A stretch of 22,170 nt of DNA from Candidatus Rifleibacteriota bacterium (GCA_051747585.1 JBNJGH010000054.1:1-22170), one strand, 5' to 3'; shown: positions 750 to 10,289, counted from the stretch's first letter. Numbers and translations are program-made. Notes: generated by a model from the letters alone, not told the origin.

Positions 750-2357
750 TTAGAGCTCTTTCATAAGTGATTCGAGAATTTCCCGCTTTTTATCCTCGTC
801 GTCTGTATGACGCATAAAGTCAGCCAGTTTAAGCATGAGTTCGGCATAAAGATTGTGAGAATCTTTTCCGGTGGCTGCTTCTTTTGGAAGCCCTGCTCCG
901 GTAGCTACAGGTTTGATTTCTTTTGGAGCTTCTTTTTTAACAGGTTCAAGCAGGTCAAAGGTTTGCCCTATTTCAGGAATAACAGTATCAAAGCCCTTCT
1001 GTTCTTTAATCAAACGGGCAAACTCTTCTGATGCTTCTTGATCACCATGAACAACAAACACGTTTCCGTTGACTTTTTCGACTTCTTTTATCCAGTTTAA
1101 CAGACCTTTCTGATCTGCATGCCCTGAATAACCATCGATGCGCTCAATTTTGGCTTCAACCGAAACTTCTTCACCATGAATTCGTACGGTTTTATTGCCT
1201 TCGAAAATATAGCGTCCGAGGGTTCCGTGGGCCTGATAGCCAACAAATATTACCGTATTTTCGCTTCCCCAGAGATTATGCTTCAAATGATGCTTGATAC
1301 GCCCTGCAGTACACATGCCTGAAGCAGATAGCAAAACTATGCCTTTCTGACCATTTAGCGCTTTGGATTCTTCAACAGACTCTGTAAATCTAAAGTCAGG
1401 GTGATCGAATAGACCGCCCATACTTTTCATTACATCGCGAGCATCCTGGTCATAGCATTCCTGATGTTTAACAAAAACTTTGGTAATATTGGTGGCAAGT
1501 GGAGAATCGATAACCACTTTAATACCCGGGATTTCTTTACGCTCTTTGAGAATTAAAATGTCATGCAATAAATCTTGAGTTCTTTCAAGGGCAAATGACG
1601 GGATCAAAATATTTCCGCCTCTTTTAATTGCATTCTGAAAAATTTCTGCCAATTTCTGCAAACGCTCTTCTTTTTCTACAATTTCTCTGGATCGATCGCC
1701 ATAGGTAGATTCTACCATCAGATAATCGGTTTCTTTAAATGAGTCAGGATCTTCAACAATTGGATGGTCATCTTCACCAAGATCACCTGAGAAGACGAGT
1801 TTGCGTTCTTCGCCATTCTCTTTTACAAAAATTTCGATAAATGAAGACCCAAGAACATGACCGGCATTATGAAATTTAACTTTGCATCCTTCTGCAGGTT
1901 CAAAAAATTCATAGCGCTTAACCGGGCTCATAAGAGAAACCGCTTTGTCTGCATCTTCAAAATCATAAATGGGGGCAACCTGCGGCAGTCCCTTTCTTTC
2001 GTTACGGCGATTCTTGTGCATAACATCCATTTCCTGAATATGCGCCGAATCAGGAAGCATGTATTGCAATAAATCTATTGTCGGCTCAGTGGTATAAATT
2101 TTGCCGTTAAAGCCGTGCTTAACCAGCTTGGGCAAAAGTCCCGAATGATCGATATGCGCATGAGTGACAAGAACAAAATCAATACTGGCAGGATCGTAGG
2201 CAAAATCTTTATAGTTATTTTCTCTTAAAGTTTTGTTGCCCTGAAACATACCACAATCAACTAGAAATTTAGTTTTATCAGTTTCAATTAAATAATTCGA
2301 ACCGGTCACACAGCCGGCAGCACCGTGAAATGTAATTTGCATAGCTTTCCTTTCCAA
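750..2357 (-). CDS. MBL-fold metallo-hydrolase of the beta-CASP RNA-metabolising family (RNase J/CPSF-like), with a Lys/Pro-rich C-terminal extension
   Basis: HxHxDH motif (VTHAHIDHSG), then Asp/His beta-CASP motifs (GDLGEDDHP ... HGDQ) and the GYSGHAD motif. 535 aa. The start is 4 nt downstream of the preceding 143-aa ORF's stop, so the two are probably translationally coupled. Confidence 0.8.
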   Translation of the reverse strand: MERKAMQITFHGAAGCVTGSNYLIETDKTKFLVDCGMFQGNKTLRENNYKDFAYDPASIDFVLVTHAHIDHSGLLPKLVKHGFNGKIYTTEPTIDLLQYMLPDSAHIQEMDVMHKNRRNERKGLPQVAPIYDFEDADKAVSLMSPVKRYEFFEPAEGCKVKFHNAGHVLGSSFIEIFVKENGEERKLVFSGDLGEDDHPIVEDPDSFKETDYLMVESTYGDRSREIVEKEERLQKLAEIFQNAIKRGGNILIPSFALERTQDLLHDILILKERKEIPGIKVVIDSPLATNITKVFVKHQECYDQDARDVMKSMGGLFDHPDFRFTESVEESKALNGQKGIVLLSASGMCTAGRIKHHLKHNLWGSENTVIFVGYQAHGTLGRYIFEGNKTVRIHGEEVSVEAKIERIDGYSGHADQKGLLNWIKEVEKVNGNVFVVHGDQEASEEFARLIKEQKGFDTVIPEIGQTFDLLEPVKKEAPKEIKPVATGAGLPKEAATGKDSHNLYAELMLKLADFMRHTDDEDKKREILESLMKEL

Positions 2358-2361
2358 TTAT

Positions 2362-2793
2362 TCAGGAAGATATTTTAACTGAATTGGTTATCGGCAGTTT
2401 TTTTCTTTTAGCATAGGCAAGCAATTTATCTCTTCTAATGCTGTGCTCAGTCTCAAATTCGCCGCCTCGATCAGTTTTATAAGCTACACGAACCATTTTA
2501 CCCCAAGCGTTATGAGTGGTAGTTACCTCTGTGGGTTTACCTTTATCAGGGGCTTCAAAGGTTCTTGGCAAAAAACAAATAAGACCATATTGGCCTGGTC
2601 CGATTAGATAAACATGTGCCTGAAGATTCGGCGGCAATTTCTTATATTCATCGGGAAAAAGTGGAATATAAGTTGCTACCGAACCAAAGTCTCCCTGATC
2701 GATAAGTGCGGCGTAGGGTCGCGAAAATCTTTTAAGACCAAGGGTTTCGAGTATTTTTTCTATAATTTCCGGGGATACTGTTTTTACTGCCAT
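2362..2793 (-). CDS. Hypothetical 143-aa protein with no family recognised by eye
   Basis: Clean ORF with an ATG start. It is tightly coupled to the downstream MBL hydrolase gene (4-nt gap) and lies 70 nt downstream of alr on the same strand. Confidence 0.5.
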   Translation of the reverse strand: MAVKTVSPEIIEKILETLGLKRFSRPYAALIDQGDFGSVATYIPLFPDEYKKLPPNLQAHVYLIGPGQYGLICFLPRTFEAPDKGKPTEVTTTHNAWGKMVRVAYKTDRGGEFETEHSIRRDKLLAYAKRKKLPITNSVKISS

Positions 2794-2863
2794 TGCGCGC
2801 CATTCTATTAGTTAATTAATTGTGATTCAAGATATTTTTTTTATGTTTTGAATTTATACTGCT

Positions 2864-3988
2864 TTAAAAAGGGTCAAAATAACGCTTAACCCTGCTGTTA
2901 ATCTGACAGGTAACTTCATAGGTAATAGTATTTAATTTTTCGGCCCATTCATAAGCGCTTATCTCTTCTTCTTTATCATTTCCAATTAAGGTAACCGTAT
3001 CACCAACCTTGACTTCTGTTTCTTTGCCAAGATTACACATGCTCTGATCCATGCATACCCTGCCAACCACAGGATAAGACTTACCATTAATCAAAACTCT
3101 GCCTGAATTGGAAAAAAGTCGATTGAACCCGTCGGCATAACCAGCCGGAAAAGTTGCTACCCAGGTTTCTTCAGGAGCAATCCAGGTTCTGCCATAGCCA
3201 ATAGATGTACCCTTTTCCACCTTCTTAATAAAAGAAACCCTGGTCTTGAAACTCAAACCTGGCTTCAGATCTATGGTCTGGGGGGTCTCATTGGAAGGGT
3301 AAAACCCGTAAATCATAATTCCGGGGCGCACCATATCAAGCCAACCATCAGAGTGGGCCAGAACTGCTCCGGAATTGGCACAATGAACAAGATCAAATTT
3401 AAAATCGAGCTCTTGTTCTATGCCTTTGACAATTTTTTTAAATCTGGAAATCTGGCGGTCGGTAAATGAAGTATTGGCTTCATCACTTACGGGCAAATGA
3501 GTCATTGCAGCGGTCAATTTTAAATGCGGGCAATTTTTTATTATTTCTCTGGTAAGTTCGGTTGCATTTTCAGGCGCTACTCCGATTCGGCCCATACCGG
3601 TTTCAATTTTTATATGAACATCGACTGTTTTTCCCAGTTCTGCTGCTGTTTTCTCGAGAGTTCTTACATTTTCAAGATCTATAACAGTCAATGTAAGTTC
3701 AGAATTAACCGCTTCTGCCATTTCTTCAGGAAAAACAGGGCTGAACTTAAGAACAGGAAGTTTGATGCCGGCCTGACGCAATTGAATGCCTTCCGGGACT
3801 GTTGCTACTCCAAGCCAGTCGATTCCGATTTTTTCTGCCATTTTGGAAACTTCTACAGCGCCATGCCCATAAGCATTAGCTTTTACCGCAATTAAAATTT
3901 TTCTTTCAGAACCAACAGCTTTTCTTATGTTTTCCAGATTATATCTAATGTTATTAAGATGAACCTGTACATGAGTCTGATAAAGCAT
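2864..3988 (-). CDS. alr: Alanine racemase (PLP-dependent). Start placed at the ATG at 3988 rather than the TTG at 4003.
   Basis: PLP-lysine motif AVKANAYGHG, plus GMGRIG, HCANSGA and RVCMDQ signatures. A strong SD (GAAGGTGAG) lies 6 nt upstream of the ATG at 3986-3988. The orr stop lies immediately upstream (gap 1 nt), so the genes are translationally coupled. Confidence 0.8.
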   Translation of the reverse strand: MLYQTHVQVHLNNIRYNLENIRKAVGSERKILIAVKANAYGHGAVEVSKMAEKIGIDWLGVATVPEGIQLRQAGIKLPVLKFSPVFPEEMAEAVNSELTLTVIDLENVRTLEKTAAELGKTVDVHIKIETGMGRIGVAPENATELTREIIKNCPHLKLTAAMTHLPVSDEANTSFTDRQISRFKKIVKGIEQELDFKFDLVHCANSGAVLAHSDGWLDMVRPGIMIYGFYPSNETPQTIDLKPGLSFKTRVSFIKKVEKGTSIGYGRTWIAPEETWVATFPAGYADGFNRLFSNSGRVLINGKSYPVVGRVCMDQSMCNLGKETEVKVGDTVTLIGNDKEEEISAYEWAEKLNTITYEVTCQINSRVKRYFDPF

Positions 3989-3989
3989 A

Positions 3990-5081
3990 TTACTCACCTT
4001 CAATTACAACTTTATGCACATATTCTGAAGTAGAAAGAGCCAGTAAAGCACCATAATCGGGATAAAAGCCAATTTCATCGCCAACCTGATATTCACACCG
4101 GCTGTCATGCACATCCAGTATCAGATGGTCACTCGAACCACCCAGAACAATAATTCCCTCATCGATTGGGGTTATGCCGTCAACTAATACATCCTGACGG
4201 CCTAAATTGCAAATAACTCTTTTTCTGTTTCCGCGGTCGACAAATTCCTGAGTCTCGCCAAAAGCGTCCTGACCTCGATCTCCGATTGGTAACGAAGGTT
4301 TCATTTCTGCCTCTATTACTTCGCCCACAGTAACAAAGGTATCCTGCCTGGTTTCTGGCCAGGGCGAACGATCTGTAACATTACGACCAAGAATTATAGA
4401 TTCTCCGATTCGATATAAATTAATTTCTTCGGGTAATTTGCCCTCACGCATAATTGGCAAACCGGAACTGTTGCCACCGCAAATTACCGGCAGCTCCAGG
4501 CCGCTATACTCTCTGCACTTTTCGACTGTATCTATAAGCAACTTCATGTTTTCAGCCGAAGGTTTAACACCTCCATAACAGGCAAGATTACAGCCAAGTC
4601 CAACAGCTTCCAGACCTTTGAGCTCACCGGCTTTTTTTACCAGCTCAGGAGCTTTGGCTGGCCAGGTACCCTCTCGCAGATCGCCGACATCAATCATTAT
4701 AATTACTCGGTGGAGCAAATTTTTCTGGCAAGCTGCTTCAGATAAGGCTTCTAAAGTTTTAAAGCTGGAATTCAAACTATAATCTGCAAGTTCGACAACC
4801 TCATGAGCCTTTGAAATCGAGGGTAAGCGCAATAAGAGAAACGGCCCTTTAAACCCGGCCTTTCTAAGTTTTTCGATATTTTCAAGCCTGGAATCTGCCA
4901 GCATATCGGCACCGGCTTCTTCAAGAGCTCGGGCAACCCGGGGGTGAGCAGAGACTACTTTTGTAACGCAGGCAACTTTGATTTTATTTTGATGGCATTG
5001 TTTTATTACAGCTTTTGCGTTTTGTTTGATACGCTCGGGATAAATTTCGAGTCTGGGAGTTTTAAACCTTCTGGTTTGCAT
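3990..5081 (-). CDS. orr: Ornithine racemase-like PLP enzyme (alanine-racemase-fold, YhfX/Orr family). Start is uncertain: ATG at 5081 (preferred, 4 nt after the MutL-like stop), or the alternatives at 5099 or the TTG at 5120.
   Basis: VTKVVSAHPRVARALEEAGADMLADSRLENI, LLLRLP, MIDVGDLREGTWP, GLGCNLACYGG and GGNSSGLP match what I recall of Clostridium sticklandii ornithine racemase. Its position downstream of oraSE and the mutL-like gene mirrors the known ornithine-fermentation cluster. Confidence 0.65.
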   Translation of the reverse strand: MQTRRFKTPRLEIYPERIKQNAKAVIKQCHQNKIKVACVTKVVSAHPRVARALEEAGADMLADSRLENIEKLRKAGFKGPFLLLRLPSISKAHEVVELADYSLNSSFKTLEALSEAACQKNLLHRVIIMIDVGDLREGTWPAKAPELVKKAGELKGLEAVGLGCNLACYGGVKPSAENMKLLIDTVEKCREYSGLELPVICGGNSSGLPIMREGKLPEEINLYRIGESIILGRNVTDRSPWPETRQDTFVTVGEVIEAEMKPSLPIGDRGQDAFGETQEFVDRGNRKRVICNLGRQDVLVDGITPIDEGIIVLGGSSDHLILDVHDSRCEYQVGDEIGFYPDYGALLALSTSEYVHKVVIEGE

Positions 5082-5085
5082 ATCT

Positions 5086-6429
5086 TTAAAGCTGTTCATA
5101 TTGCTTAATCCAATCTTCAAAAGTATTTTTTATGAGTTCAGGGTATTCAATGGCTATAGTTCCCAGGGCGGAAAAAAGGTAATCTCGGTCAAGGAATATT
5201 TGAGCATCGGGTTTAGGCAAAAGAGATCTGGCCGGACCGGTGCAAACCGATTCAAGTATTTTTTCGCCTCCATCTACTCTGGTAAGAGCCCCACCTGTTC
5301 CGATAACCCATTTTACTGCGGATAAATCTTTTCCTCTAATAATTTGTTTTTTACCCGAGGGAGTAAAAAGGTCGCCAATTACTCCGGCATGTCTTTTAAC
5401 GCCGGCTTCAACTGCCTTTTTACATAACCACCTGGTAATTTCTTTTTCCTGTTCGGTTGCAGGCATTGCTTTAATGTCATCTACTCTCTGCATCCAGATT
5501 TCGTCATCTGCCAATTCAAGAACATTACGGGCATTGACAAAAACACCGAGATCACCCTCGACGGTACGTTTACATCTTGGTTCAGGATCTATGAGTTTGT
5601 CGGCAAATTCTGTACTGCCTTCGGTTACAGAATGCACATCAGTAGTAGCACCACCCACATCAACTATCAGGCAATCACCGGCTACCTCGGCAAACAATTC
5701 TGCCCCCTTTAGAACAGCTCCTGGCGTCGGAATAATCTGGCGCTCAGTAAGACTTTCGAGTCTGTGCATACCCGGAGCATGAATAATGTTTTTTGAAAAA
5801 AGTTGCTGCATTTTCTTTCGCAGCGGTTCAACTTCAAGCACGTCGACATCAGGAAAAACATTGGGTGTAATTAAAAGCTCTACACCTGTTTTTTTGAAGA
5901 TATTGGCAACCGCTCGCTTCAAAGCGCTATTACCGGCATAAACAACCGGAACATGCAGGTCAAGCGAAGCAATTTTTATGGCATTCTGTAAAACAACTTC
6001 TTTTGCTCCAAAATCAACTCCACCAGCCAGAACGATCATATTAGGCTGAATTTCTTCTATTTCTTCAAGATCAAATTCGCTTAAATCACCGGCAGTAACC
6101 ATTTTTATTATTGCTCCGGCACCGAGACTGGCCTCTCGTGCCGCTCTGGCAGTCATATTATAAGTTAAACCATGAACCGTAACCCTTAGACCGCCGGCAG
6201 CAGAACTATTTGCAAAAATTTCGGCATTATCGCTGTCAGCACCAGACTTTTGTTCAAGGTCATCAATAGCACTTTTGAGTCCAATTCCAACATTGCCCTG
6301 CTCGACAGTTGTCGAAGCAAACCCCTGAGCTACATGCTTCAGAGAGTTGTGATCTGTTTTAACAAAACCATTTGCTTTTGTAATGGTACTGCCGACTTCA
6401 AGCGTTAAAATTTCTATTTTCATGCTCAT
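5086..6429 (-). CDS. MutL/GlmL-like protein (glutamate mutase component L family; ASKHA-type putative reactivating chaperone for B12-dependent mutases). Start placed at the internal ATG (MSMKIEI...).
   Basis: N-terminal LEVGSTITKA, SSAAGGL, GAGA and VDVGGATTDVHSV motifs are typical of MutL/GlmL. The SD GAAGG lies 8 nt upstream of the ATG at 6429. The longer ORF reaching 6492 has no RBS and overlaps a predicted promoter. Confidence 0.7.
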   Translation of the reverse strand: MSMKIEILTLEVGSTITKANGFVKTDHNSLKHVAQGFASTTVEQGNVGIGLKSAIDDLEQKSGADSDNAEIFANSSAAGGLRVTVHGLTYNMTARAAREASLGAGAIIKMVTAGDLSEFDLEEIEEIQPNMIVLAGGVDFGAKEVVLQNAIKIASLDLHVPVVYAGNSALKRAVANIFKKTGVELLITPNVFPDVDVLEVEPLRKKMQQLFSKNIIHAPGMHRLESLTERQIIPTPGAVLKGAELFAEVAGDCLIVDVGGATTDVHSVTEGSTEFADKLIDPEPRCKRTVEGDLGVFVNARNVLELADDEIWMQRVDDIKAMPATEQEKEITRWLCKKAVEAGVKRHAGVIGDLFTPSGKKQIIRGKDLSAVKWVIGTGGALTRVDGGEKILESVCTGPARSLLPKPDAQIFLDRDYLFSALGTIAIEYPELIKNTFEDWIKQYEQL

Positions 6430-6463
6430 TAATTTACCTTCTGCATAAAAAAATTGGAAAACA

Positions 6464-6492
6464 ATACTACCACAGGCCAACTGCTGCCTCAA
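6464..6492 (-). promoter_or_regulatory. Candidate sigma70 promoter for the mutL-like/orr/alr operon: TTGAGG, 17 nt spacer, TAGTAT (read on the minus strand)
   Basis: The -35 and -10 hexamers were seen directly in the sequence at the correct spacing, ~30 nt upstream of the SD/ATG at 6429. Confidence 0.3.
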
Positions 6493-6507
6493 CTATCTCT
6501 CTGAATA

Positions 6508-6521
6508 GTCAGGGCAATTGC
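6508..6521 (-). promoter_or_regulatory. Copy B of the repeated motif GTCAGGGCAATTGC (core CAGGGCAAT), centred ~85 nt upstream of the mutL-like start codon
   Basis: The same 9-11-mer occurs at 9760-9770 (same orientation, ~94 nt upstream of oraS) and inverted at 7026-7040 (just downstream of the oraE terminator). Confidence 0.35.
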
Positions 6522-6709
6522 ATTAAAATCCTGAACCCCACATTAACTCTTGGCAGACAGTTTCATCTAAATAATCAGCAATTTTCAGTGAACCGTTATA
6601 AGCTGGTTTTCAAAAGTTTTGCTTTTATTTCTTTCTGTCAAATATAGAATTTTCACCACCGAGATCACAGAGTGCACCGAGACAATTTTTTAATCTTTTT
6701 CAGCCTATG

Positions 6710-6775
6710 TTCACAATATTACTCAGCATTCAGAAAAGCATTAATGTTTTTCTGAATGCTGAGTAATATTGTGAA
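6710..6775. repeat. 66-bp near-perfect palindrome: 28-nt arms ttcacaatattactcagcattcagaaaa / ttttctgaatgctgagtaatattgtgaa around a 10-nt spacer gcattaatgt that is itself one mismatch from palindromic
   Basis: Verified base by base. The right arm (6748-6775) is the exact reverse complement of the left arm (6710-6737). Confidence 0.9.
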
Positions 6776-6776
6776 A

Positions 6777-6818
6777 GCCGGACGGTGAAACCGCCGGCTG
6801 ATTGTCCAAAGGACAATC
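6777..6818. other. Two further tandem stem-loops immediately after the palindrome. The first is a GC-rich hairpin GCCGG(a)CGG-tgaaa-CCGCCGGC (6777-6798). The second is GATTGTCC-aaa-GGACAATC (6800-6818).
   Basis: Both stems were checked by direct complementarity. On the minus strand the GC hairpin is followed by TTTCAC. Confidence 0.6.
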
Positions 6819-7025
6819 CACGGCTGAAAAAGATTCTCTGTGATTCTCTGAGGGCTCTGTGGTTATTTTCTTTGTGGCTTTGAGGCTTGGTGTGAGGCAA
6901 ATTCTTTTCTGAAATGATTTGATAGTCGCTGACCAAGAATTGCTATACGCAAGCGTTGTTTTTGCTAACAAAAGCGAGCAAACGTAGATTTATGAAAATG
7001 AAATGTCTGCCCGATTTTTTTTGTG

Positions 7026-7040
7026 CGATTGCCCTGTCAG
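7026..7040 (+). promoter_or_regulatory. Copy A (inverted) of the CAGGGCAAT motif: cgattgccctgtcag on the + strand, which reads CTGACAGGGCAATCG on the minus strand
   Basis: Forms a long-range inverted pair with copy B (6508-6521), flanking ~520 bp of structured non-coding DNA. Confidence 0.3.
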
Positions 7041-7085
7041 AATAAGAAAAAGCTCCGGTGCGTCGCCATCAGCAAGCACCGGAGC
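7041..7085 (-). terminator. Rho-independent terminator of the oraS-oraE transcript: stem GCTCCGGTGC / GCACCGGAGC with a 14-nt loop, followed on the minus strand by TTTTTCTTATT
   Basis: 10-bp perfect GC-rich stem at 7052-7061 / 7076-7085. On the minus strand the U-run follows immediately, 14 nt after the oraE stop (7099-7101). Confidence 0.7.
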
Positions 7086-7098
7086 CCTGTTTGTCAGT

Positions 7099-9303
7099 TT
7101 AGATTTTACCTTTTTTCTTAAGGGTTTTAACGATTGAATCTACCACTTGAATTCCTTTGGAACCCCGACCGAATCCGTCATCCATACCGCATTCCTGCGC
7201 TATTTCTCTGGTAACCTGAGTTCCGCCACAGATCAGAATAATATCATCTCTTATTCCTTTTTCGCGACAAAGTTCATCGAGCTTGCGCATGTTTTTACGA
7301 TGAACATCATTATGGCTGATAATTGTACTGATAAGAATGGCCTTGGAACCGGTTTCGATTGCGGCATCAACCATTTTGCTAACCGGAACGGAAGTGCCGA
7401 GATAATGATATTTAGCACCAAATTTTTCAATTCCGGCGTGTTTAATATCAAGTATTTCGCGTAGTCCGACCGAATGCTCGTCTTCGCCTACGGTTCCAGC
7501 AACAACAGTAAGTCCGGCTTTTTTGATTCCTTCGCGTATTTCGTCTTCTGAAAGCATTTGAACTTTAGGAGGAATTTTAAGATTGGTGCGATCAATCGAG
7601 AAATCAACTTTACCCTTCACCTCAAGGAAAGTGCCTTCTGATGGATGGATAACCTGCGCATTGGTAACTTCGGGTTCGAGCAAACCCATCTTTTTAGCAA
7701 TTTCATTGGCCGCTGCTTTGGCTACTTCGAGCTCTTCGGGCAGGAAAATCTGAACAAGAACGGTTCCATCACCCGCCCATTCTACTTCAGGTTTAATTGA
7801 TTTACCTTTACGGTATTCAATTGTTTTTTCGAGCCTCAAATTGCAGTTGTCAGTCTGGTCAATTTCATCTATGTAATGAATTTTTTCTGGTTTGCACAGA
7901 GTGCAACCATCAATAAGGTCACAAGGCTTTTTAATATTTTCCGGCAGTTTGTTATGACCAAAATTGCTGCAAACCGGTGCCATATAGTCTTTTTCTCGTT
8001 CGACTATGGTATCAATACCTACGCCACCCTTACCGCTTCTTGCGATTCCATCACCGTTTCGTTCAGGATATTTGGCCGAATCAACGAAGAAACCTTTTTC
8101 GACGGCAGCAAAGTATCCGCCGCTTTCCAGCATTTCTTCAAGGAAGCAAATCGCTCTGATCTTGAGGTCTCTTACCATTTCGCCCAAGGGGCCTTCGCGA
8201 TCAATTTTAAGCAGTTGCTTGATGCCATCGAGAGCTACCAGGGTCTGCTTTGCGGTTTCCACCCCTCTGACACTGTTATAATGCCATGGCACGTTTCTAC
8301 CTTCATCTGGAGTTATTGTACTTTGAATATCGGAATGGGTTAGAGCAGTTATAAGGGTATCAATAACATGAGTACGAGTTGCTTCTTCAATATCGGATTC
8401 TATATATCTTGTATTTTGCTGAGCTCGGAATTTAAATTCTTTAAAGAGATCTCTTAAAGCAACAGCATAAGGAAGATCATACCAGAGTTTTGGTGAAGGA
8501 GGAGCACATGGTGGAACAGTTGAAAGCCCGATTTGTGACTTTGGCATTCCTACAGCTACAGAGAAAGCACAGTTGATACCATGCTGAACCATAAGTTCAG
8601 GCATGACTGCCCAGCCTTCGCGTGCGGTAGCATTTGCATTATGGGCACCATCAATCTGAAAAATATGAGCATCTGCCATTATTTTTTTCGCATTTGCCGC
8701 ATCAGTAAATGAGCGATACATGTTTACATTGCGATAAAGAACATTATATTGAGGATCCTGGTGCGCACCGTTTATTCCTTCTTCGGCGAATAGAACAGCA
8801 ACTTCGGGACCTGCTACACCGGAAACATAAGAATGAAAGTTAATCGGGCGCCCGACTTCATCTTCAATCATATCGCAGGCTTTTCTTGAGGCTCTGATCT
8901 GCTTTCTGGTTATTGGAACCCCTCCGACTCCTTCGGGTGTTCCTTCGAGTAAGCCATCGATGTGGCTTTGCCCGGTTGTTCTAATAACCATAATATGGTC
9001 AGCGCCGTGCCATGCGGCCATTCTCATACGACGAATATCATCTTCAAAACGACCTGAAGCTATTTCTGTGCTGATAACAGGTTTAGGCTGAGGATCTATG
9101 TTATTAAAATATTTTGCAGCAGGCAGGGGAACCGAATTTTTTAACGGTTCGCTCATGTCTTTAAAATTGAACTTTTCTACCTTATAACCATCTTTTATAT
9201 GGTTGCGCCAGGTCCAACCTTTGCGCCGAGGATGATAATCCTTTAAATTTGTGAGTATTTCTTCTATATCGAGTTTTTTTTCGGGGTTTAATTTTTCTGT
9301 CAT
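7099..9303 (-). CDS. oraE: D-ornithine 4,5-aminomutase large subunit E, B12- and PLP-dependent (a KamD/KamE-like fusion)
   Basis: 734 aa. The motif run PRRKGWTWRN ... IASGRFEDDIRRMRMAAWHGADHIMVIRTTGQSH ... GAHQDPQYNVLYRN matches what I recall of C. sticklandii OraE. The C-terminal B12-binding Rossmann domain carries a DxHxxG motif (EDEHSVG). SD GAAAGG lies upstream of the ATG at 9303. Confidence 0.9.
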   Translation of the reverse strand: MTEKLNPEKKLDIEEILTNLKDYHPRRKGWTWRNHIKDGYKVEKFNFKDMSEPLKNSVPLPAAKYFNNIDPQPKPVISTEIASGRFEDDIRRMRMAAWHGADHIMVIRTTGQSHIDGLLEGTPEGVGGVPITRKQIRASRKACDMIEDEVGRPINFHSYVSGVAGPEVAVLFAEEGINGAHQDPQYNVLYRNVNMYRSFTDAANAKKIMADAHIFQIDGAHNANATAREGWAVMPELMVQHGINCAFSVAVGMPKSQIGLSTVPPCAPPSPKLWYDLPYAVALRDLFKEFKFRAQQNTRYIESDIEEATRTHVIDTLITALTHSDIQSTITPDEGRNVPWHYNSVRGVETAKQTLVALDGIKQLLKIDREGPLGEMVRDLKIRAICFLEEMLESGGYFAAVEKGFFVDSAKYPERNGDGIARSGKGGVGIDTIVEREKDYMAPVCSNFGHNKLPENIKKPCDLIDGCTLCKPEKIHYIDEIDQTDNCNLRLEKTIEYRKGKSIKPEVEWAGDGTVLVQIFLPEELEVAKAAANEIAKKMGLLEPEVTNAQVIHPSEGTFLEVKGKVDFSIDRTNLKIPPKVQMLSEDEIREGIKKAGLTVVAGTVGEDEHSVGLREILDIKHAGIEKFGAKYHYLGTSVPVSKMVDAAIETGSKAILISTIISHNDVHRKNMRKLDELCREKGIRDDIILICGGTQVTREIAQECGMDDGFGRGSKGIQVVDSIVKTLKKKGKI

Positions 9304-9321
9304 TATGCCTAACCTTTCTAC

Positions 9322-9672
9322 TTAAAAAAGATTGTCGAGAGTTGTTTTGTCTTCGGCGATTTTTTGGGCCGCTTCAGGAATTTTGATGTTGTTTTTCTCT
9401 GAAACGCGCAAAACAACATGCCCGGCACCTTTACCAAGCAATCCGGCTTCCTTGACAACATTTACAACTGCTTGAGAGGTCATACTATCTATGCCCATGC
9501 GCAATAATACAGAACGCTCGATTGAAGGCGAAGTAAAATTACGCCCATAATCAACCATGGGTTCAACAACTTTTTCGCATAAACTCCAGAACTTGTCTTT
9601 AAGCTCATCATTGCTCATTTTTTCGAGTTCTTTACGACGAGCTTCAAACTTTTTAATTCTTTCTTCGCTCAT
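9322..9672 (-). CDS. oraS: D-ornithine 4,5-aminomutase small subunit S
   Basis: 116 aa. SPSIERSVLLRMGIDSMTSQAVVNVVKEAGLLGKGAGH matches the conserved OraS core. It lies 18 nt upstream of oraE, with the SD AAAGGA before its ATG. Confidence 0.85.
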   Translation of the reverse strand: MSEERIKKFEARRKELEKMSNDELKDKFWSLCEKVVEPMVDYGRNFTSPSIERSVLLRMGIDSMTSQAVVNVVKEAGLLGKGAGHVVLRVSEKNNIKIPEAAQKIAEDKTTLDNLF

Positions 9673-9759
9673 ACCAATTCCTTTCGAACTAATAATTTCA
9701 TTTTATGCCAAGACTGTAACTCGTTTTGCCCATTTTTACCACCCTAAATTGTAAAATTT

Positions 9760-9770
9760 TCAGGGCAATT
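9760..9770 (-). promoter_or_regulatory. Copy C of the CAGGGCAAT motif (tcagggcaatt), centred ~94 nt upstream of the oraS start, in an A/T-rich context
   Basis: 11/11 identical to copy B in the same orientation relative to the downstream minus-strand operon. Confidence 0.35.
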
Positions 9771-9788
9771 TTTTAAGTATGGCCAAAG

Positions 9789-10289
9789 TCATGAATTCTT
9801 TCTTTCGGCATTTCGAACATAAATATTGAAGGTAAATGCAGGAGTTGTTGCAAAATTTTCGCTCGATACAAGTTTGAATTGTTCAGAAGAAAATTCCGGA
9901 AAATATTTGTCTCCTTCGTAAGCTTTTTCAATAGTAGAAAGATAAATTCTATCTGCAAAAACCAATGCCTGGTGGTAAACACTTTCGCCGCCGGCTATAA
10001 AAACTTCTTGGGAGAAATTCAATTCATCTGCAATTTTTAAAGCCTGTTGCATGCTTTCAGCGGTTAAAGCTTTTTCAAACATTGCATCTGGCTGACGAGT
10101 CAAAACTATTGTCTTTCTTCCCGGCAGAGCTTTACCAATGCCTTCAAAGGTTTTTCGTCCCATTATAAGAGTTTTATTCATGGTAATTTTTTTGAACAGT
10201 GCAAGTTCTTCGGGTATATGCCAGGGCATTTTACCCCGATTACCAATCAAATTGTTCTTATCTCTGGCCGCTATGATTGAAATAATCAT
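9789..10289 (-). CDS. folA: Dihydrofolate reductase
   Basis: MIISIIAA..NLIGNRGKMPWHIPEELALFKKITMNKTLIMGRKTFEGIG..LPGRKTIVLTR is a textbook DHFR N-terminus. 166 aa. Confidence 0.85.
   Translation of the reverse strand: MIISIIAARDKNNLIGNRGKMPWHIPEELALFKKITMNKTLIMGRKTFEGIGKALPGRKTIVLTRQPDAMFEKALTAESMQQALKIADELNFSQEVFIAGGESVYHQALVFADRIYLSTIEKAYEGDKYFPEFSSEQFKLVSSENFATTPAFTFNIYVRNAERKNS

Follow-up and report, generated by a model that had tools for sequence, protein, structure and literature searches.

Upstream of two operons of an ornithine-fermentation cluster, a 22,170-nt stretch of DNA from a Candidatus Rifleibacteriota bacterium (the whole of which is hereafter called the window) carries the same short motif, CAGGGCAAT, and this raises the question whether the motif is a binding site shared by both operons or whether it has another origin. 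Exact copies are present at four places, namely at 6510 (+), 7028-7036 (-), 9761 (+) and 6292-6300 (-). Three of them had been reported by the first-pass annotation and are indeed found at 6509-6519 (copy B), 7028-7036 (copy A, inverted, ATTGCCCTG) and 9760-9770 (copy C), while the fourth (copy D), located inside the coding sequence of a mutL-like gene, was overlooked there. The identity of copies B and C extends over 11 nt (TCAGGGCAATT). As had been claimed, they are oriented alike relative to the minus-strand genes and lie at nearly equal distances from the start codons, copy B 81 nt upstream of the ATG of the mutL-like gene (6429) and copy C 89 nt upstream of that of oraS (9672); the placement of copy A just after the oraE terminator was likewise confirmed, the hairpin 7052-7061/7076-7085 preceding it. 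The data described below indicate that 6510-7036 is a 527-bp non-autonomous derivative of the ISAs1 family of insertion sequences (IS), resembling a miniature inverted-repeat transposable element (MITE), that the outermost 9 nt at its two termini correspond to copies B and A, and that copy D is coding sequence and copy C probably a chance match. The probability of this reading was put at roughly 0.9.

Under a first-order Markov model, 0.22 occurrences of the 9-mer are expected on the two strands of the window, in agreement with the earlier estimate of ~0.2, and in 2000 simulations the probabilities of finding at least one, two and three copies were 0.20, 0.02 and 0.0025, respectively. Four copies exceed naive chance, yet they are not independent of each other: a single element accounts for both A and B, which form its ends, and conserved codons dictate the sequence of D. 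As for the identity of copies B and C, 1.8 11-mers common to different spacers are expected by chance in the 1,475 nt of intergenic DNA (P = 0.67 for at least one), so that the 11-nt match alone is not significant.

In the closest relative, whose OraE protein is 97% identical (L001-L007 among the fetched loci, plus 14 further similar places), the gene order is that of the window, and the oraE-mutL spacer measures 129 nt instead of 669 nt; in the next relative (88%, L008-L013) it is 64 nt long. When 6510-7036 and one 10-mer are taken out, the remaining 132 nt of the window spacer are collinear with the spacer of L001 and 86.4% identical to it, a value which matches the 85-88% identity of the flanking coding sequences of the window and L001. 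The junctions were drawn by hand and confirmed by a global alignment with the element removed. Directly outside the segment lie the 10-mers TCTGAATAGT (6500-6509) and TCAGAATAAG (7037-7046), which agree at 7 of 10 positions in register (the probability of at least 7 matches arising by chance is ~0.005 according to our own binomial estimate for this base composition), and the empty site of L001 has a single 10-mer, TTAAAATAGT in the window orientation. Judged from these alignments, the window and L001 represent a classical pair of filled and empty sites, and the two flanks are best read as a decayed 10-bp target duplication. An insertion polymorphism of this kind, with an empty site in related genomes, is among the features by which MITEs are recognised.

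These comparisons bear directly on the proposal that a host transcription factor uses CAGGGCAAT, situated near -57, as its operator or activator site and co-regulates the oraSE operon and the operon of the mutL-like and racemase-fold genes. Apart from the likeness of copies B and C in sequence, orientation and distance, the proposal draws on the location of copy B, whose centre lies ~57 nt ahead of the transcription start expected from a conserved promoter, and on that of copy C, which is similarly far upstream of a conserved promoter-like block. However, copy B exists solely through the insertion, and both the 97% and the 88% relatives are devoid of the site upstream of mutL. Besides, hundreds of mobile elements from unrelated phyla end in the same sequence, and shared spacer 11-mers are to be expected by chance in any case. 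No surplus of copies beyond chance is left independently of repeats, as A and B belong to the same element, D is part of a gene, and the P of C by itself is 0.2 across the whole window. The shared regulator site suggested by the first-pass annotation for both operons is thus unsupported, copy B being a transposon tip lacking in the closest relatives and copy C being unconserved, and the operator reading seems highly improbable.

The 527-bp element begins and ends with terminal inverted repeats, CAGGGCAATTGCATTAAAA at 6510-6528 (+), which holds copy B, and CAGGGCAATCGCACAAAAA at 7018-7036 (-), which holds copy A; the repeat finder recovered them as a pair (I2) of 19-nt arms with 84% complementarity. 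Inside them follows a second inverted pair (GGCAGACA(G)TTTCAT), the subterminal repeats being GGCAGACAGTTTCAT at 6552-6566 (+) and GGCAGACATTTCAT at 6998-7011 (-) (pair I13), and more nested repeats are found further in. The GACATTTCA block behind the termini recurs in L105, L053, L115, L171 and L129. Three 9-nt units, CACCGAGAT CACAGAGTG CACCGAG, make up an array in the left arm (6657-6681, +), which is inverted with respect to a CACAGAG-type array of 9-nt units in the right arm (6835-6862, -; pair I6). Arrays of three such CACAGAGNN-type units are present in inverted orientation on both arms, and arrays of the CACAGAG type were also seen in or beside other ISAs1-ended mini-elements from unrelated metagenomes (L152 449-522 and ~790-816, L134 ~2370-2393, L128 2423); the array may represent a nested repeat module. 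The core is enclosed by an inner 14-nt inverted repeat, AATCTTTTTCAGCC/GGCTGAAAAAGATT (6692-6835, pair I3, 100% complementary), and contains a 66-nt central palindrome at 6710-6775 (pair I1, 36-nt arms, 97% complementary) and two short G+C-rich hairpins predicted by folding at 6776-6818 (AGCCGGACGG..CCGCCGGCT and GATTGTCC..GGACAATC). The arms of the segment align to each other, and its DNA folds back with a z of -13.9 relative to shuffled sequence. The GC content of the element (0.39) is close to that of the window (0.40). The longest open reading frame (ORF) inside it comprises 76 aa; neither this nor a 68-aa internal ORF matched an annotated protein family in database searches, and the only extra match of a HMMER search with the 76-aa ORF was an unrelated repeat protein. 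No transposase gene was found either in the element or in the window.

Terminal repeats of the ISAs1 family are 14-22 bp long, begin with CAGGG and are accompanied by a 10-bp direct repeat (PMC11946415); in the case of ISArsp11, the repeat is CAGGGCTAATGCAAAGTCG, again with a 10-bp direct repeat (PMC6305408). In these respects the window element, with its CAGGG-starting repeats of fitting length and its 10-bp, though decayed, duplication, resembles ISAs1, ISArsp11, ISMae35 and ISAsp2 (PMC11946415, PMC6305408). A scan of species-representative genomes with the terminus plus the subterminal block yielded 39 loci, among which 110-220 bp elements bounded by CAGGGCAATCGCAT...ATGCGATTGCCCTG recur in Anaerolineae, Dehalococcoidia and Acidobacteriota, several of them with exact or near-exact 10-bp duplications; similar elements are present in Chloroflexota and Acidobacteriota genomes. 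The scan of metagenomes for CAGGGCAATYGCAYWAAAAW yielded at least 120 loci, and many of the terminus matches lie ~100 nt from contig ends, as is usual for repeats. Another metagenome pattern, CAGGGCAATYGCAN{10,40}GGCAGACAN{0,1}TTTCAT, gave no match, while in viral contigs the terminal pattern gave two irrelevant matches and a 20-mer of the palindrome none.

Paired termini were found to bound full-length elements of 1250-1577 bp (L056, L070/L151, L085, L100, L127, L168). The element of L151, by its termini, is the 1335-bp element of L070 and has a perfect 10-bp duplication, AGCTTTGCAG. The same termini also bound elements without coding capacity, 49-636 bp long, and perfect 10-bp duplications flank at least 12 of these. 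The ORFs of the four full-length elements scanned (L056, L070, L085 and L127) encode 376-382 aa and match the NCBIfam model NF033564, "ISAs1 family transposase", with E-values of 1e-118 to 1e-133, as well as Pfam PF13808 and PF01609. The terminal consensus CAGGGCAATCGCATTAAA was built from partner ends which had not been selected by the search pattern; of its 18 positions, 17 are matched by the left end of the window element and 16 by the right end, and termini identical to those of the window bound full-length elements with NF033564 transposases. Since the window element does not encode a transposase of its own, it is a derivative and not an IS. It also differs from the full-length members in its size (527 bp instead of 1.2-1.6 kb), in its ability to move only in trans, and in its interior, which is unrelated to that of the full-length elements fetched. 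The alternative offered by the first-pass annotation, that copies A and B are the terminal inverted repeats of an insertion of ~530 bp carrying the big palindrome, is hence fully supported, and the insertion can be named as a non-autonomous ISAs1-family element.

In its general plan, the element is much like bacterial MITEs such as the MaeMITEs of Microcystis (PMC2779907), as it falls below the size of ~600 bp which is taken as their limit in the same source, has terminal inverted repeats and a target duplication, is non-coding, intergenic and able to fold back, and shows presence/absence polymorphism. The Correia elements of Neisseria are further bacterial MITEs. With 527 bp, however, the window element stands at the large end of the size range, and its ends are of the ISAs1 type, in contrast to the many bacterial MITEs assigned to IS630 or IS5. 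MITEs as a kind are already well known; in the literature searched, no paper was found which deals explicitly with MITEs derived from ISAs1. Among the small derivatives detected, the smallest is a 49-bp element (L126, 6930-6978), which consists of little beyond two back-to-back ISAs1 termini. On a Dehalococcoidia chromosome (OY761558.1; L027 4436-4828 and L040 5080-6407), ISAs1-ended mini-elements of 186-198 bp are arranged in tandem with only the 10-bp target between them, upstream of an ORF resembling a transporter of the major facilitator superfamily (MFS), and more copies lie within a few kb.

Traces of the interior were detected among predicted proteins. The product of a spurious ORF, P0121 (ACQETH_15550), shares 75% identity, including a run of 28 identical residues, with the 76-aa internal ORF, and is partial, which suggests a contig end; that of another, P0122 (ACQETH_07765), shares 47% identity and an identical run of 18 residues with the 68-aa ORF, which is in the other frame. 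Both belong to one Candidatus Rifleibacteriota metagenome-assembled genome (MAG) and come from different loci of it, and therefore the interior is repeated within the phylum. Nevertheless, several points weigh against the assignment proposed here. These two matches are at the protein level and concern the interior only. The blastn search of the element against the 174 fetched loci returned matches to the termini and one to the CACAGAG array only, with no DNA sibling of the interior; the window element is the sole copy seen as DNA. The target duplication is imperfect (7/10), and a recurrence of the terminal 9-mer in the 1.5 kb of intergenic DNA, as seen in copy C, is expected only ~0.015 times.

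The element separates oraE (7099-9303, -) from the mutL-like gene (PF13941; 5086-6429, -, with the ATG at 6429 assigned by ORF translation), downstream of which lie two racemase-fold genes on the same (-) strand. An intrinsic terminator of oraE is located at 7047-7085 (-), with a 10-bp G+C stem (7052-7061/7076-7085, pair I14) and a T-run, and the target 10-mer starts right behind this T-run; the terminator hairpin is identical in L001 and was not damaged by the insertion. On the opposite side, the element ends 17 nt upstream of the -35 hexamer of the predicted promoter of the mutL-like operon (6464-6492, -), which was read from the sequence as TTGAGG, a 17-nt spacer and TGG-TAGTAT. It is conserved in L001 (TTGAGG..TGTTAGTAT), and L177 keeps its -10, although the promoter-prediction tool scored 6464-6492 below threshold.

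With this setting in mind, the following course of events is envisaged. The ~18-nt termini would be recognised and cut by an ISAs1-family DDE transposase, which a full-length copy at another place in the genome would supply in trans. The element was inserted in the 10-bp target that directly follows the terminator T-run of oraE and precedes the -35 of the mutL-like promoter by 17 nt, and the target was duplicated; staggered cuts 10 bp apart, once repaired, would account for this duplication. The spacer thereby grew from about 130 to 669 nt, and a long fold-back structure was gained. The insertion was most likely neutral or nearly so, because terminator and promoter are both present in the empty site and are unchanged.

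A functional role of the insertion may nonetheless be considered. The fold-back core could have been co-opted to separate oraE from the mutL-like operon as an additional bidirectional terminator or insulator; alternatively, the outward end could modulate the adjacent promoter. In favour of such a role, the RNA of the oraE-mutL spacer is predicted to fold far more stably than shuffled sequence (z = -8.3), the 66-nt palindrome is still 97% perfect though the outer arms have decayed, and the mini-element end in L177 described below has the geometry of a hybrid promoter. On the other hand, a complete terminator and promoter are already present in the empty site of L001 and have not changed in the window, and fold-back structure is generic to MITEs, which makes co-option unlikely. 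In view of its strong predicted structure, the core at 6657-6862 could also be taken to encode a small RNA or to serve the mutL-like operon as a riboswitch-like leader. This candidate was rejected. With permissive E-values, scanning the window against Rfam gave no match at the gathering score, and the weak hairpin matches on the palindrome, to miRNA precursor families and an archaeal sRNA, reached 24.6-34.5 bits as compared with gathering scores of 63-100 (the best one, a generic hairpin, 34.5 bits versus 71). Moreover, 6657-6862 lies upstream of the conserved promoter and hence outside the 5' untranslated region, and the core is missing from the closest relatives, so that an RNA gene or leader appears extremely improbable.

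The outward end of the element deserves mention with regard to transcription, too. IS1, IS2 and IS257 carry an outward-facing -35 in the terminal repeat, from which hybrid promoters arise. The outward end in the window, ATTGCCCTG, similarly holds a -35-like TTGCCC. Unlike in those cases, the native -35 (TTGAGG) lies 17 nt past the end of the element and is conserved without it, and therefore no hybrid promoter is needed in the window. A different geometry is seen in another member of the Riflebacteria (L177 7283-7344, the same in L178; OraE 83% identical), where the oraE-mutL spacer harbours a ~61-bp element with ISAs1-type ends (TAGGCAATTGCAC...TTAATGCGATTGCTCTG), matching the terminal consensus at 18 of 20 positions. 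Its position relative to the promoter is unlike that of the window element, and 18 nt separate its outer TTGCTC from a downstream TGn-TAGAAT -10, the right spacing for a hybrid promoter; such a promoter is possible there, as far as can be told from the spacing of the two boxes. In L001 (~8925-9011, also in L007), an 87-nt insertion relative to the window is found upstream of the DHFR gene; it contains CAGGGCAATATCATTTAAC, which matches the ISAs1 terminal consensus at 15 of 20 positions, and a 10-nt inverted repeat, TCAGCAATTC/GAATTGCTGA, and may be a decayed micro-element.

The two remaining copies of the motif require separate explanations. Copy D (6292-6300, -) spans the codons GAG-CAG-GGC-AAT of the mutL-like coding sequence, which specify the residues E-Q-G-N in VEQGNVG, a motif conserved in the MutL-like proteins of L001 and L008. 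L001 shares the 9-mer, and the sequence in L008 reads CAGGGCAAC; copy D is ordinary coding sequence. Copy C (9761-9769, +) lies in the fast-evolving spacer between the DHFR gene (9789-10289, -) and oraS (9322-9672, -). At its position only 5-6 of 9 bases match in L001, and nothing comparable is found in L008, L175, L176, L177 and L179. The presumed conservation of the motif upstream of oraS or mutL was not borne out, as none of these six loci has a match with at most one mismatch there, save for the terminus of the L177 mini-element.

It may be asked whether copy C is what remains of another ISAs1-type element, either a decayed relic or a pseudo-end, all the more so as relics of ISAs1 ends do occur in spacers of the clade, exemplified by the ~61-bp element of L177 and L178 and the insertion upstream of the DHFR gene in L001. 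Copy C, however, matches the family consensus at positions 1-9 only (11/18 overall) and is devoid of the near-invariant YGCA at positions 10-13, and no inverted partner is found nearby. The DHFR-oraS spacer measures 116 nt in the window and 110 nt in L001, with no window-specific extra sequence at the motif, and copy C is therefore not an insertion remnant. A relic is accordingly considered unlikely. A composite transposon ending in copy C was also considered and ruled out, as no inverted partner exists beyond 9769. One extra copy of the 9-mer anywhere in the window has a probability of ~0.2, and copy C is most likely a chance 9-mer, to judge from its sequence context. Given the expectation of ~0.015 for intergenic DNA, which would equally favour an operator, chance is in this case a judgement rather than a proof, and for this reason the relic and, with still less weight, the regulatory site are kept as alternatives.

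A block upstream of oraS, GGGTAGC.AAAA..GGCAAAACGAGTTAAAGTCTTGGCATAAAAT (9690-9745, -, in the window; 9560-9625 in L001; also in L008, L175, L176 and L177), is far better conserved than the position of copy C. The block is thus a more probable candidate for the genuine oraS promoter or operator.

A further, more speculative reading is prompted by the fact that two diverged lineages, those of the window and of L177, carry ISAs1-type ends in the same spacer, with the L177 end supplying a properly spaced -35. Ends of this type might have been recruited repeatedly in Riflebacteria as cis-regulatory DNA in front of the operon of the mutL-like gene (a putative aminomutase reactivase) and the racemase genes, copy C then being a convergent site for the same DNA-binding protein, e.g. 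a regulator derived from a transposase. This is thought very unlikely.

By its OraE homologues, the window belongs to the Riflebacteria (Candidatus Rifleibacteriota/Ozemobacteraceae). The cluster at 750-10289 comprises oraS, oraE, the mutL-like gene, the two racemase-fold genes, a 143-aa ORF and a gene for a beta-CASP metallo-beta-lactamase, and no ord, ortA or ortB is found within the 22 kb of the window. In the Ozemobacter relative L179 (1774-4506), genes for DapB_N/DAP_DH_C, OrtA and PALP proteins lie directly upstream of oraS, a position held by the DHFR gene in the window and L001. In L177, a gene for an IS110-family transposase (3440-4465; PF01548/PF02371) is situated directly upstream of oraS; it is missing from L178, which is otherwise identical, and represents a second insertion polymorphism at the cluster.

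With 6510-7036 assigned to the non-autonomous relatives of ISAs1, a misleading hint of regulation disappears from the ornithine-fermentation cluster of this uncultivated phylum, in which an apparent shared operator turns out to consist of the ends of mobile DNA and one chance match. At the level of the family, termini of the ISAs1 type (CAGGGCAATCGCATTAAA) are documented in environmental genomes, those of Chloroflexota, Acidobacteriota and probably Riflebacteria among them, at the ends of many non-coding mini-elements whose 10-bp duplications are clean, which is of use for the annotation of repeats and in accounting for contig breaks in MAGs. As regards the host, the insertion has left both the terminator of oraE and the mutL-like promoter intact.

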